The notes beneath the pieces were generated by a model. It made no database searches and had not been told where the DNA came from. It saw only the letters and a program-made list of their open reading frames with translations. Positions 1 to 27,369 of a stretch of 64,000 nucleotides of DNA are shown in pieces. A program made the position numbers and the translations under genes. Each line of letters starts with the position of its first letter. Position 1 is the first letter of the stretch. The stretch is from Xylographa opegraphella (lineage: Eukaryota): the NCBI GenBank assembly GCA_022813865.1, contig JALDZX010000034.1:62001-126000 (forward strand), given 5' to 3'.

Positions 1-536
1 TGACGGCTGGCAAAGCCGGTTCCAAGGTGAAGCTTGTTTTGGCAGTTACGGGCTCTGGTTGATACGAAAAAGGTGGTGCTTCCAGACCTCTGGAGTCATT
101 CGCACCCTCGACACCATTTAAGACAAACTGCGGATTTGGCGCCGGACGTTTTAATAGGTCTTCCATCGACTTCAGCCGCTTCTCCAGCTGCTCAATACGC
201 TTGTCCCTAGATAGAATCAGGAACCCATCGTACAAGCGCTCGACCTCTGCCGTTGCTGCTCCGGACTGACACCAAACTCACCTACCCAATCGTCTCGGCG
301 CCCGCGTCATGCTGATAGGGGTAAAATGGCACGGGGTCTTGTATTGGATGCATTGCGCACAAGATCCCGAGACTACGTTGCAGCGAATCTTCTTCTGTCG
401 ACACATATCACACGCCTGACCTGTGCCGGTTAATCATCGATCTATCTGGAGTTCCTGTGAAAGCACAGACTTTTGTGATGGGCAACATGGATTGCTTCTC
501 CTTGCTAGAGCTCACGAATACGGGGCGTGACGCCAT
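1..536 (-). CDS. Zn2Cys6 (GAL4-type) transcription factor, 5' part; probable cluster-specific regulator (terR-like position); continues beyond left window edge
   Basis: Not in the ORF track. ATG at 536 (MASRPVFVSSSKEKQSMLPITK), then an intron ~470-416, then ACDMCRQKKIRCNVVSGSCAQCIQYKTPCHF (CX2CX6CX6CX2CX6C). A second intron is followed by a coiled-coil segment (KRIEQLEKRLKSMEDLL). Confidence 0.92.
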
Positions 537-631
537 GGTTGGCTCCCGCAGATCCTATGTCACAGAGGATTTGATATTCGTTCTCTAAGGTCACAGGACA
601 GAATGGTGGGATGACTGGGCGGGGCTGAAGC

Positions 632-680
632 GGAGAGGAGAGGAGAGGAGAGGAGAGCAGAGGGGAGGAGAGGAGAGAGA
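632..680. repeat. (GGAGA)n purine-rich microsatellite upstream of the TF start
   Basis: Five perfect GGAGA units at 632-656, followed by degenerate units. Confidence 0.85.
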
Positions 681-1447
681 AGAAGAGGAAGGAGGGGTGG
701 GAACGAGCTGATGGAGATGGAGCGAGCTAGTTTTAGATTTCATAAGCAAGTCATGTGATCTCAGCCCTTCTCAGCCCGCGGTCACGTGAAAGAAGTCATG
801 GCAAAGATTTGCTGCATTCTTCAACCAGAGCGACCTCGAGCTGCGAGCATCAGACTGAGTTGGGCTCCTATCGTCCGCCGCTGGGAATAAGTTTCAAAAC
901 CAAAGTCCCCTAAGTCTCTTGCTGGACTATACTTCCAGATTGACGACCATCCATTCTGCCACAAATGTACCTTAGCAGTGAAAGCTATCACTTCTACGAT
1001 GTCATGGTCGTCCGCTCTCTGCTCGAGGGAAGATCGAGAAGAAGATCAAGACACGTTCTAAAAGACCAAAAGCAACTGACGAATGCCTGTGCTTCTATAG
1101 TAACCTAGCGTCTCCTCGAGAAACCTGGAAACGCTAACTATGTCAATGAACTGAGCGGCCGGAGCACGGGTAATAGGCTCTACACTATGTGACTCGCCGG
1201 CGTCTCCGAGTTAAATACTTCGTACAATTAGGTACCTAAGGATATCACGCGAATCCAAACAAATAGCAATTCGTCCACTTCGGCTATTCAGATTGTTCGT
1301 TCCACAACGGATTTTAGCCTTGCAATACCTCACAGAAAGCCGACACTCTCCTCCAATGTCACCTGTTTCCGGCGAATGCTGCAGACTCGAACACCATGCG
1401 AAGACTGATGCCGTATAGCAGAATCCGGAAAACCGGATTGATCGACT

Positions 1448-23650: not shown

Positions 23651-25060
23651 TCAACGCTTTTTGGCCTCGATCACCGCTTCGGATACCCCGTCTGTTTGCC
23701 AGATTTTTTTGATGTCAAGTCCAATCGAATCGAGAAGAGATGTCCATTGACTTTCACTTCTTTCCATGCCAGATAGAAATGTTAACATCAATATATCTTC
23801 CGAGGCTCCAGCTAAAGGAGCACCAACGTCCGGAAGAACCCATTCGTCGATCAACAGGGATGACTCGGAGCTCATGGCTTCGACGGTATTACCTAGCAGT
23901 CGCCGGCAGTCCGCATCATCAAAATCGTGGCAGACAGACTTGAAAAAATACGCTCGAGCGCCTAAGCTAGATTAATGGATTGTAATGCGCCATCCCACCG
24001 CACGTGCTGTGACATACCTTTGATTTTTTGGGGAGTAAAGAAATCATATCCAACTCTCTCTACACCCTCCGAATGAGCAGGAGAAGCAATCAGTGTCTCT
24101 GGCAAGTCTTGAACAACGCAGCGACCTTTGATATGCGGATTCTTGTTTCTGAAACTCGCAGCGTCATAGCCGGTATTACCCCCCACATCAACCAACAGAG
24201 GTGGCTCGTGTGCTTCTTGAAAGCCTTTCACGTCAAGCTCCGTGGCTGCTGGATAGATCTCGTGCCACGGAAGCCGCAGCCCGGTCCGGCGTGCACCCAT
24301 GTAACCATCGAAAGCCCGTTTTAAATCGGGATCACCACGCATCATATCCCATTGATGCATCCCATGGGTCCATATAAAAGGACTCTTCTCGCCCTTGGTG
24401 TAGTCCGGGAATTGAGTGAAGCGGTTTTGTTTCCACAGGGAGATGATGTTGCTGGCTATGGGGAATGCGCATCTCACCCTATTGGAATGATCAGGTAAAA
24501 ACTCCTCAACAGGGCTTTGCTTCATACACCAGATGATATCCATCTATTTGCCCGGGTTGAGATAGCCATTTTGATACTGTGTTACTCCTATACCGACTTG
24601 GACCGACTTCATCAAACACGTTGATGGCGGTAAGAATTCTCATGAAGCGTACTTTGCTTGTTAGAAATTGTCCACCGCCACACTCTCAGATTGCTTACTA
24701 ATCAGCAAAGTCTCCGCTTTGGTCTTCTCTGCAAGCTCCTGCGCCGAAAGCGGTGTCTCGCCGCTCTCTACAAGGGCCTGCAGCACTCCAGACTCGATAG
24801 CGAGGAGAGTACTGATGTAATCTACTGGCTGTTTCTCACCCGTTAAGATCTGATCAGAGAAGGCAGGCAAGTATCAGATCTCGTACTTGAAGTCTGAGCC
24901 TCGCTACATAGTGTGCCGGACCCTCCACTGCAATTTGCAGGCGCTGAATGGCTTTCACGAATTCTCCTTGGGGGACCGAGCCGTGGCTGGCCTGCAGCTC
25001 AGCCAGTTCTGACACTCTCTTGGACAACGCCAAAAGGGAGTTCTGTCCTGCTTCGTCCAT
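23651..25060 (-). CDS. SAM-dependent O-methyltransferase (Methyltransf_2 / COMT-like), multi-exon
   Basis: Spliced frame is intact. Motifs LLVDVGGNTG, VVQDLP, YDFFTPQ, YFFKSVCHDFDD (catalytic His) and LLIDEWVLP, with an N-terminal dimerisation/wHTH segment (PLSAQELAEKT). Confidence 0.92.
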
Positions 25061-26011
25061 GGCTGCTCGCAGATCGGAATCGGGGCTGGATCACACTTGC
25101 GGCATCCAGAGATCAGCGATGAGGTGGTGTTGGCTCTTTAAATAAAGCTATCACAAATATCAGACCATCCCTGTCGGTGGCGGAGCGATCCCAGGCAATC
25201 ACAGCAGCCCATCCGGAGCGGCTCGGTAATGTCATGCAAGCCGAGCCTTGGTATGTGCCATTTATCAAACCGGAACTCTCGAAAGGTATCCAATAGCGGT
25301 AGAAGTTCTCAAAAGGCAAACCGACTTTCTCGCCGAACCGCAATGTTTGATATCCGAAATCCGAAGATCAACTCCTCAGCGAATCCGATCCGAGGTTTTA
25401 GTATCGCTAAGCTTAGATCTACCTCAGGTTACCATACTGGGACCTCTTGATGCTCATCTCGTCGCTGAGCCGTCCCACAAGAAGCCACCACTTCGTCCTC
25501 GTGCACCCATCGTTGTATCTCGGTTAGGACATCGCTATCGTGCTAACCGTGTGGAGCTAAGCGCGCGGGAACTTTAGGGTGCGACCCTGACTCTTGGCGC
25601 TGCTCCCGGAGCGCGGCTACTTTGCTGGCAGCGGCACGGAAGCAGGAAGCATCCTTCCCCGAGTTGTGACGGGACATTGGTTGTAAGGTGGTGCAAATGT
25701 GAAGGCTTTGTATAGCATCCAGACTGGACTACCTCCCTACAGTACAACATCATTGTATGGATGAACGTCATGGAAGGTGGAGCAGGTGTAACGATCCAAT
25801 CGGAGCTGTTGGAGAGCTTTGACATCCGAAGATATGATAAACAACCTGATACATGAACGGCAAACCCAAGAGCAGAATGTCTTCCAGCCATGGGACGTCC
25901 ACGCATACGCAAGACCACGTTAGCTTAATCCATTTCTCTACTTGCTCCAACCAGGAGCGCTTCAGCTAGATCCCCTCACCACAACACATCAAGTCGAATT
26001 CTGGCAAAGGC

Positions 26012-27369
26012 ATGGTCCCGTCCGCTTTGAGTCAGGATACTGGCTCTACGCCAACCATGAGCGAGTCACAAGTCGAATTAACCAAGTATCCAGATGGCAA
26101 AGGTCTCGCCTCTAAAGAGGATGGCGCAGATGGACCTCACGAATACCCCAATCCATTCCACTCTCGCCCGTGCGAGATCTTGTTCGTCGGAGTCGTGTGC
26201 GTTGCTCAGCTCACAATTCAAATTTCTTTCGGCCAGACTCTGAACCCCATTCACATCATGGGAGACCAATTCGATACGACAAATTCTGGAACACTCAGTT
26301 AATTCGTCGCAAGCTACTCTTTGACAGTTGGCTCTGTCATCCTGCTGTTCGGGCGCAATGGAGATTACATTGGCAACAAGAGGTCATGGGCCTTTAATAG
26401 CCTTGCCCTTTTCCTTGCTACAGCAGCAGTCGTTAGCCATTTAGTTATCCCAAACTGGGTATTCGGGACCATGGATAAGACGAAATTGAGTCTCTGGCAG
26501 CTATTAGAAAGACTGGGCATACTCGGCGGATCTATTGGGATCCTTGCGGTTACCTTGATCAACCTTGCATGGAAACAGTGGCTCCAGCCACTTCATGGTC
26601 CGAGCCCTCTGTCATCACGACTTTGCTATTGGGGCTATGTCTTGTTTTGGCATTTTTCCTGATTGAGACTCTGATATCGTCTTCATCGTTTATAACGTTG
26701 GATATCATCACAAGCGATATAGGCTTCGTAGTTGCCTGTATAAGCTGTGGATGGGCAACTTTCGGGATCTGGATTTATTATTCTTTCTAGTTTTTCCAGC
26801 AGATTCGAGGCAGCGATCCTGTACTTACGTCTGCCTACTCTGCTCCAGCGGCCATATCCGGTGCACTTCCCTCCATTATTACTGGTCTGCTTCTTCAGAT
26901 TCCCCATCCAGCTTGGGTCATGACATTTCCACTCACTTCATTCTCCATCGTGTCTGTGCTCGTTGCAACGGCACCTGTACTGCAAATCTACTGGTCTCAG
27001 ACGTTTGCGAGCATGATATTTATGACGTGGGGTATCGATATGAGCTTTCCTGCTGCCACTATTGTCATGAGCAACGCAGTGAAGCCTGAACATCAGGGAA
27101 TCGCAGCCAGTCTGGTTATGACGTAAGTCAAACCGGACGACGAGTCCGCATTGAGTTTCGTCTTGAGACACTGATGTGGATCTTGCAGCGTGGTCAATTA
27201 TAGTATCTCGTTGGGCCTCGGGTTCGCGGGTACTGTCGAGTCGCCGGTAAACGGAGGTAATCTACTGCAAGACTATCGGGGTGCTTTATGCATGGGCGTT
27301 GGCTTGGCGGGCTTTGGTCTTTGCCTGAGTCTCTTGTTCATATATCTTCGCGTGTACCGGTCTTCTTAA
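26012..27369 (+). pseudogene. Disabled MFS drug:H+ antiporter (DHA2 / ATR1-like) exporter
   Basis: Recognisable segments (YSLTVGSVILLFGRNGD, GWATFGIWIYY, WGIDMSFPAAT, HQGIAASL, VVNYSISLGLGFAGTVE) are interrupted by TAA at 26300-26302, a frameshift near 26579, TAG at 26788-26790 and an apparent internal deletion after GNKR. Confidence 0.85.

Follow-up and report, generated by a model that had tools for sequence, protein, structure and literature searches.

Here, we describe a polyketide biosynthetic gene cluster in Xylographa opegraphella that resembles the terrein (ter) cluster of Aspergillus terreus. It occupies positions 1 to 27369 of a 64,000-nucleotide stretch of contig JALDZX010000034.1 (positions 62,001 to 126,000 of the forward strand; GenBank assembly GCA_022813865.1), hereafter called the window, and all coordinates below are those of the window. 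The layout was derived from stop-to-stop open reading frames (ORFs) scanned with Pfam, in fungal DNA with short introns; the scan covered selected ORFs of at least 100 amino acids (aa) and some shorter ones in 1-30 kb, and selected ORFs of at least 130 aa beyond. From left to right, the cluster contains genes for a Zn2Cys6 transcription factor, a first flavin adenine dinucleotide (FAD) monooxygenase (FMO1), a non-reducing polyketide synthase (PKS), a free-standing dehydratase-ketoreductase (DH-KR) protein, a second FAD monooxygenase (FMO2), a flavin-dependent halogenase, a small YCII-family protein, an O-methyltransferase, and a dead transporter of the major facilitator superfamily (MFS). An original prediction, made from the sequence alone, had named all of these elements, and each was found where it had been placed.

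The PKS gene (3995-10701, minus strand, five exons) encodes an intact TerA-clade enzyme with the architecture SAT-KS-AT-PT-ACP-ACP-TE, as judged by Pfam, homologues, phylogeny, and motifs. The Pfam domains detected were SAT, KS, AT, PS-DH (i.e., the PT domain), two PP-binding domains, and Thioesterase. The protein aligns end to end with a 2163-aa PKS of Xylographa pallens (P0001; tblastn) in four pieces with 79-91% identity, and this alignment is broken by introns only; the gene appears to stop early because of a small intron near the C-terminus. The motifs DTACSSS, HGTGT, NIGH, GHSLG, DSL (two copies), and GWSAG, together with the SAT motif GLCTG, are all kept.

In the searches of public proteins, the ORF that encodes the KS and AT domains matched 16 PKSs at 62-88% identity, while the remainder of the best 120 matches were at most 55% identical and of the melanin PKS1 type. 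These 16 proteins include those of X. pallens, Xylogone, Bisporella, Pyrenula, Lachnellula (labeled "terA"), Lachnum palmae, A. terreus, A. lentulus, Periconia macrospinosa, and further aspergilli and penicillia. A tree of 33 sequences was built from the window PKS, all 16 top matches, and 16 chosen from the other 104. The window PKS is placed beside that of X. pallens within a 17-member clade, opposite the melanin-type clade, with a Shimodaira-Hasegawa-like approximate likelihood ratio test (SH-aLRT) value of 100. The KS had been proposed to group with TerA rather than, for example, with resorcylic-lactone or depside PKSs, and it does not group away from the A. terreus enzyme in this tree, which was drawn without PKSs of the latter two kinds; none of these were among the best 120 matches.

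The DH-KR gene (11564-14837, plus strand, four exons, approximately 1038 aa) is of the TerB type and contains PKS_DH_N, PS-DH, and KR domains. Its start codon is provided by the first exon, and an in-frame TGA (13048-13050) lies within a 48-nt GT..AG intron; a perfect TACTAAC branch site, the NADPH motif, and the Y-x-x-x-N motif are also present. The PKS and DH-KR genes are divergently transcribed from a shared 862-bp promoter (10702-11563) that separates their start codons, which lie on opposite strands. With the domains, motifs, and open reading frame described above, the suggestion of an intact PKS paired head-to-head with a free DH-KR protein is borne out. The linker between the DH and KR domains (12616-13950, plus strand, approximately 430 aa) has no Pfam match, either to a methyltransferase remnant or to any other domain, and carries a degenerate glycine-rich stretch where a C-methyltransferase motif would sit. 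It may represent what is left of the inactive methyltransferase domain that has been described for TerB and is absent in RslB.

FMO1 (1856-3211, plus strand, 402 aa, four exons) is a TerC-type monooxygenase with a FAD_binding_3 domain. The first exon contains two codons only and is followed by a 53-nt intron. This unusual feature was reported for terC and rslC (Kahlert et al., PMC8453496). Full-length homologues (P0241 and P0246) begin with the same two residues, and the identity of FMO1 is 88% to the X. parallela protein (P0241) and 61% to a Lachnellula protein labeled "terC" (P0246). The Lachnellula "terC" and "terA" entries both give the same longest contig (65153 bp).

FMO2 (15855-17955, plus strand, 631 aa) is a TerD-type phenol hydroxylase with FAD_binding_3 and Phe_hydrox_dim domains. 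With its 306-aa exon as the query, identity was 100% to a 631-aa protein of X. opegraphella itself (P0121), 70-72% to the matches from A. lentulus, A. karnatakaensis, and A. terreus, 69% to one from Cladonia metacorallifera, and 66% to a protein labeled "terD" from Lachnellula. For A. karnatakaensis, the FMO2 match and the PKS match give the same longest contig (759457), which suggests that the two genes are on one contig. Unlike FMO2, neither the KS-AT ORF (searched against proteins of 2058-5000 aa) nor the FMO1 exon (351-2000 aa) has a 100% public match; at FMO1 and the PKS, the public annotation of this genome may contain truncated models or none, as reported for terC at NCBI. Taken together, the KS-AT clade, the two-codon exon of FMO1 and its 61% identity to "terC," and the 66-72% identity of FMO2 support the earlier assignment of these genes to a terrein core (TerA/TerB/TerC/TerD).

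The halogenase gene (19171-21279, plus strand, 565 aa, six exons) is of the RadH type. Three of its exons match the radicicol halogenase RadH (PDB 8gu0) with E-values of 8.6e-12, 7e-56, and 7.6e-66 over RadH residues 39-75, 89-228, and 230-406, respectively, and by eye about two-thirds of the residues are identical over the aligned exons. The FAD motif GGGPAG, the WxWxIP motif (GWAWCIP), GDAGCF, and the lysine aligned to RadH residue 74 are all kept. RadH acts on a resorcylic acid lactone, whereas the expected substrate here is a dihydroisocoumarin. The O-methyltransferase gene (23651-25060, minus strand, 399 aa, five exons) has Methyltransf_2 matches on two exons. Open models with canonical GT..AG introns were obtained for FMO1, the halogenase, the YCII gene, and the O-methyltransferase gene, at the lengths given for each.

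The YCII gene (21871-22334, plus strand, 119 aa, three exons) was first pointed to by a language-model search at lead level, and its family was assigned through homologues. Its single exons have no match in Pfam, and a PDB search with exon 3 alone gave chance-level matches only. An exhaustive search with exon 3 returned only 20 proteins at E ≤ 0.001. When 18 of these were scanned with Pfam (two long repetitive ones were left out), PF03795 (YCII) was found in six at E ≤ 0.01, three of which pass the curated cut-off. One homologue of 114 aa (P0259) mirrors the three-exon model from residue one. A profile of this subfamily has exactly two matches in PDB, namely, TftG of Burkholderia (PDB 4lbh; E 1e-6), a 5-chloro-2-hydroxyhydroquinone dehydrochlorinase, and the YciI protein HI0828. 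The AlphaFold model of P0259 (predicted local distance difference test score of 86.8) likewise has TftG as its best Foldseek match (E 1.6e-7, template modeling score of 0.82), followed by HI0828. To our knowledge, no activity is known for fungal YCII proteins. Both the family and the window retain the histidine (exon 2) and aspartate (exon 3) found at the aligned positions of TftG; for TftG, a His-Asp dyad is described as required for catalysis (PMC7641849). On the other hand, TftG is a bacterial and catabolic enzyme and is only 23% identical to the modeled homologue.

For comparison with relatives, metagenomes were scanned with one DH-KR exon, which yielded nine loci, seven at 78-79% identity and two short ones at 50-53%. 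The order FMO1, PKS, DH-KR, FMO2, and halogenase is kept in all seven close loci as far as each reaches, and the YCII gene follows the halogenase gene in all four that extend to this position, the other three ending earlier. Intron positions and the stop codon of the YCII gene are conserved in L001, L002, and L004. Relative to two of the loci, the ratio of nonsynonymous to synonymous substitution rates (dN/dS) is 0.07-0.27 for every tested exon of the PKS, DH-KR, FMO2, halogenase, and YCII genes (0.10-0.18 for YCII), with dS of approximately 0.5-1.2. These low ratios indicate that the biosynthetic genes are maintained by selection.

Between FMO2 and the halogenase, the relatives also have a gene for a JmjC-domain protein (2-oxoglutarate oxygenase fold), in which a Kelch motif is weakly indicated below the threshold. 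This gene is located at 14647-16533 (minus strand) in L001 and at matching places in L002-L006 and L008. The gene looks whole in L001-L004, is split by an insert of approximately 2.9 kb in L005 and L006, and is partly missing in L008. No trace of it was found in the corresponding spacer of the window (17956-19170, 1.2 kb), and nothing in PDB matched the N-terminal ORF of the gene in the relatives.

The MFS transporter pseudogene (26057-27369, plus strand) contains four lesions, namely, two in-frame stops (TAA at 26300-26302, within a conserved membrane-helix motif, and TAG at 26788-26790), a frameshift near 26575-26590, and a lost N-terminal-half signal. For this half, no Pfam signal was found even at E ≤ 10. 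The pseudogene still has a genuine intron and its C-terminal end, and only the C-terminal piece matches MFS_1, weakly. Over 19000-27500, the sequence is identical in a second assembly, which was probably made from the same read set and does not represent independent data; the lesions can thus not be put down to an error of a single assembler.

At the left edge, the Zn2Cys6 transcription factor gene (1-536, minus strand, with a putative start near 536) has a Zn_clus match (PF00172, E 1.8e-9) at 281-433. In an atlas search, this fragment matched only generic Zn_clus clusters, and these matches did not reach the recognition level. Binding sites of the terrein regulator TerR are of the CGG-N5-CGG type with the consensus CGGHHHBNCGG, and site counts were compared with a background of 100 shuffles. 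The high-affinity form with one mismatch allowed occurs 28 times in the window (19.9 expected; 2 of 100 shuffles reach 28). The promoter between the transcription factor gene and FMO1 contains one perfect high-affinity site (1448-1459) and a general CGG-N5-CGG site (1425-1435). No perfect TerR consensus site was found in the 862-bp divergent PKS/DH-KR promoter, which contains two copies of the TCGGCTACT word. TerR-type sites are not conserved in the relatives, and their counts across the window are near chance. A word picked after the data were seen, TCGGCTWYT, occurs seven times in the window (2.0 expected; 1 of 100 shuffles reaches 7). Six of the seven copies belong to the cluster region, five of them between its genes and one just past the dead MFS gene; the positions are 1280, 1448, 10853, 10941, 21389, and 27409. 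In the relatives checked, it occurs in one or two places only and not at the promoter sites seen in the window, and its role as a regulatory word is unproven.

Beyond 27.4 kb, Pfam identified a hotdog thioesterase, a sorting nexin, 5-oxoprolinase, RPA1, a dienelactone-hydrolase-like ORF, a ubiquitin hydrolase, RPL18, CSN3, and a TFIIIC subunit. The cluster is thus followed by housekeeping genes, as had been predicted, and the right-hand border is reasonable. The thioesterase ORF (4HBT hotdog fold; 28401-28853, plus strand) is approximately 1 kb past the dead MFS gene and is at most a candidate member of the cluster. The dienelactone-hydrolase-family ORF (45194-45742, plus strand) is amid housekeeping genes and far outside the cluster.

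Clusters of this class are already published, and the one described here is one more example from lichens. A review covers the ter, CU-PKS-4, rsl, Periconia, chm, and plo clusters (PMC12848540), terA homologues have been reported from lichens (PMC9146135), and a 2025 survey describes a family of 6-hydroxymellein clusters across lichen genomes, with a genome table that includes Xylographa species (PMC12711211). The halogenase-bearing relatives that the original prediction had named do exist in print (Cladonia uncialis CU-PKS-4 and others), such that the class is not new. The further suggestion of an undescribed variant holds in part; the class itself is published, but the YCII gene is a conserved member that our literature search did not find linked to mellein or terrein clusters, with zero mentions in the available text of PMC8453496.

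The divergent TerB-type DH-KR gene is common to all described ter-like clusters (PMC12848540). Compared with the terrein cluster of A. terreus (terA-terJ and terR; MIBiG BGC0000161), the window shares TerA/B/C/D-type genes, the divergent PKS/DH-KR arrangement, the two-codon terC exon, and a Zn2Cys6 regulator, whereas genes for a halogenase, an O-methyltransferase, and a YCII protein are absent from the ter cluster. Conversely, no Cu-oxidase or Kelch domain, as would be expected for the multicopper oxidase TerE and the Kelch protein TerF, was found among the Pfam-scanned ORFs to the right of the window start. The closest published counterpart in a lichen fungus, CU-PKS-4, has a TerA-type PKS, a TerB-type KR-DH, a TerD-type monooxygenase, one halogenase, and one O-methyltransferase, and its proposed product is an oxidized, methylated, and halogenated 6-hydroxymellein derivative (PMC12848540). 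As described, it consists of five genes with no TerC-type or YCII gene reported, whereas the window has both of these as well as a regulator and a dead transporter. The two clusters are set apart by description rather than by sequence, and the differences may be partly annotation gaps because genes that are small, or oddly spliced as terC is, can easily escape annotation.

The rsl (Roussoella), P. macrospinosa, chm (Helminthosporium velutinum), and plo (L. palmae) clusters share with the window a TerA/B/C core and flavin-dependent halogenation, in a pathway that leads from chlorinated 6-hydroxymellein to TerC-type ring opening; rsl and Periconia also have an O-methyltransferase. They differ in having two halogenases and no YCII gene mentioned, whereas the window has one halogenase together with a TerD-type gene and the YCII gene. 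According to Kahlert et al. (PMC8453496), the chlorinated clusters have no terD, terE, or terF homologues, and TerD was called terrein-cluster-specific. Small YCII-domain genes beside a non-reducing PKS and flavin monooxygenases are found in other settings, namely, dbaC and AN7894 of A. nidulans and the tropolone clusters of Hypoxylaceae. Those clusters belong to another PKS clade and chemistry (azaphilone/tropolone type) and have no halogenase.

Based on these results, the window probably carries an intact terrein/6-hydroxymellein cluster kept by selection, with a chlorinated, O-methylated, and oxidized C9/C10 derivative of 6-hydroxymellein as the predicted product. The product suggested in the original prediction, a chlorinated and O-methylated mellein or a downstream ring-oxidized or ring-contracted chloro-cyclopentenoid, is likewise a plausible guess. 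Among characterized enzymes, TerA/TerB and RslA/RslB make 6-hydroxymellein and are interchangeable across fungal classes (PMC8453496). By analogy with these pairs, we infer that the window PKS and DH-KR would make 6-hydroxymellein as well. This compound is chlorinated by RslK/N (PMC8453496), ChmK/N, and PloK/N; in the window, the single RadH-type halogenase would chlorinate the phenol ring, and the O-methyltransferase would cap one hydroxyl. TerC hydroxylates the carboxyl-bearing carbon, by which the lactone is decarboxylated to a C9H12O4 tetra-ol that oxidizes to a quinone, TerD adds a ring hydroxyl, and RslP O-methylates a ring-opened product (PMC8453496). FMO1 would accordingly be expected to hydroxylate the carbon that bears the lactone carbonyl, giving an opened, decarboxylated, and substituted benzenetriol that is readily oxidized to a quinone. 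FMO2 would add a further ring hydroxyl, and the YCII protein would act on (chloro)hydroxyquinol intermediates. The Zn2Cys6 factor at the edge is the probable activator of the cluster.

Several observations weigh against this interpretation. No RNA run containing the stretch is listed, the product is predicted from the genes, and the order of the tailoring steps is inferred. The labels "terA," "terC," and "terD" on the matches are automatic annotations, and P0010 and P0134 are putative TerA and TerD. Since the rsl, chm, and plo clusters use two halogenases that differ in regioselectivity (K and N types), the absence of a second one from 1-27369 also counts here. The related loci end before the O-methyltransferase and MFS genes, so that these two genes have no relatives in the comparison. 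The regulator is incomplete, as the gene runs off the window start with approximately 140 N-terminal residues visible, and the TerR consensus CGGHHHBNCGG is not clearly enriched (14 in the window compared with 7.7 ± 3.1 expected; 4 of 100 shuffles reach 14). Finally, the MFS gene is truly dead and the cluster's own exporter is lost.

The loss of the exporter is also what would be expected if the cluster were a silent relic in decay, with the dead transporter as the first visible loss. The four lesions in the MFS gene, the relatives' JmjC gene that is absent in the window and broken in three other loci, and the lack of RNA data for the stretch would all fit such a view. We consider it very unlikely because all eight other genes have open models and intact catalytic motifs, and the relatives used to obtain the dN/dS of 0.07-0.27 have diverged at about half of their synonymous sites. 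A similarly small chance is given to the idea that the PKS and DH-KR make a polyketide of another chain length or cyclization despite the position in the tree. TerA alone is indeed loose in chain length, with orsellinic acid, a pyrone, and a pentaketide as products (PMC12848540), and identity to the characterized enzymes is only about 65-67%. However, TerA/TerB and RslA/RslB still give 6-hydroxymellein when swapped across fungal classes (PMC8453496), and the PKS clade is tight and well separated.

A stronger challenge comes from the end of the pathway. The end product may be a simple isocoumarin, such as a chloro-methoxy-mellein, in which case the two monooxygenases would only add ring hydroxyls or give shunt products and the YCII protein would be non-catalytic (e.g., regulatory or a chaperone). 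Chlorinated melleins are known as end products in Periconia and other fungi, and TerD hydroxylates 6-hydroxymellein itself in vitro (PMC8453496). Moreover, 6-methoxymellein is converted by neither TerC nor TerD (PMC8453496), and early O-methylation would therefore block ring opening. For the YCII protein, deletions of YCII genes in the dba region of A. nidulans changed metabolite levels without abolishing them, and their authors suggest a regulatory role. Against this explanation, FMO1 is of the TerC type, for which oxidative lactone decarboxylation is the sole activity shown (PMC8453496), and, like the other genes of the cluster, it is subject to purifying selection; the YCII protein also keeps the histidine and aspartate of its family. 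On balance, we regard an isocoumarin end product as possible but improbable, and prefer the oxidized, ring-opened derivative.

Under this preferred pathway, a more specific role for the YCII protein can be proposed. Ipso-hydroxylation of 6-hydroxymellein would, by our own structural reasoning, give a 1,2,4-trihydroxybenzene with a hydroxypropyl chain, and chlorination next to this chain would give the TftG substrate core plus an alkyl group. Chlorinated benzenetriols, the substrate class of TftG, are thus what a halogenase and a TerC-type enzyme together may be expected to supply. Since the chlorinated TerC product would be an alkylated TftG substrate core, dehydrochlorination or tautomerization is a concrete, if unproven, job for the YCII protein. 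That it is a TftG-like dehydrochlorinase or tautomerase acting on a chloro-hydroxyquinol from the halogenase and the TerC-type monooxygenase is a speculative proposal, to which we give a low probability.

The cluster brings together a TerC-type enzyme, a TerD-type enzyme, one halogenase, and an O-methyltransferase, which the accounts cited here place in separate branches of the family. It offers a clean, intact gene set for the heterologous production of chlorinated mellein derivatives, the direct value of which is modest. What follows the TerC reaction is still unsolved for both terrein and cryptosporiopsin, and Kahlert et al. (PMC8453496) found no ter or rsl cluster gene assignable to the dehydration/ring-contraction step. 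Because the sole YCII enzyme with a known reaction uses chlorinated benzenetriols, the YCII gene is a candidate for the missing activity. If the proposed reaction is true, the chlorine would be present only transiently and, as a leaving group, would drive quinone formation or terrein-type dehydration/ring contraction ("cryptic chlorination").

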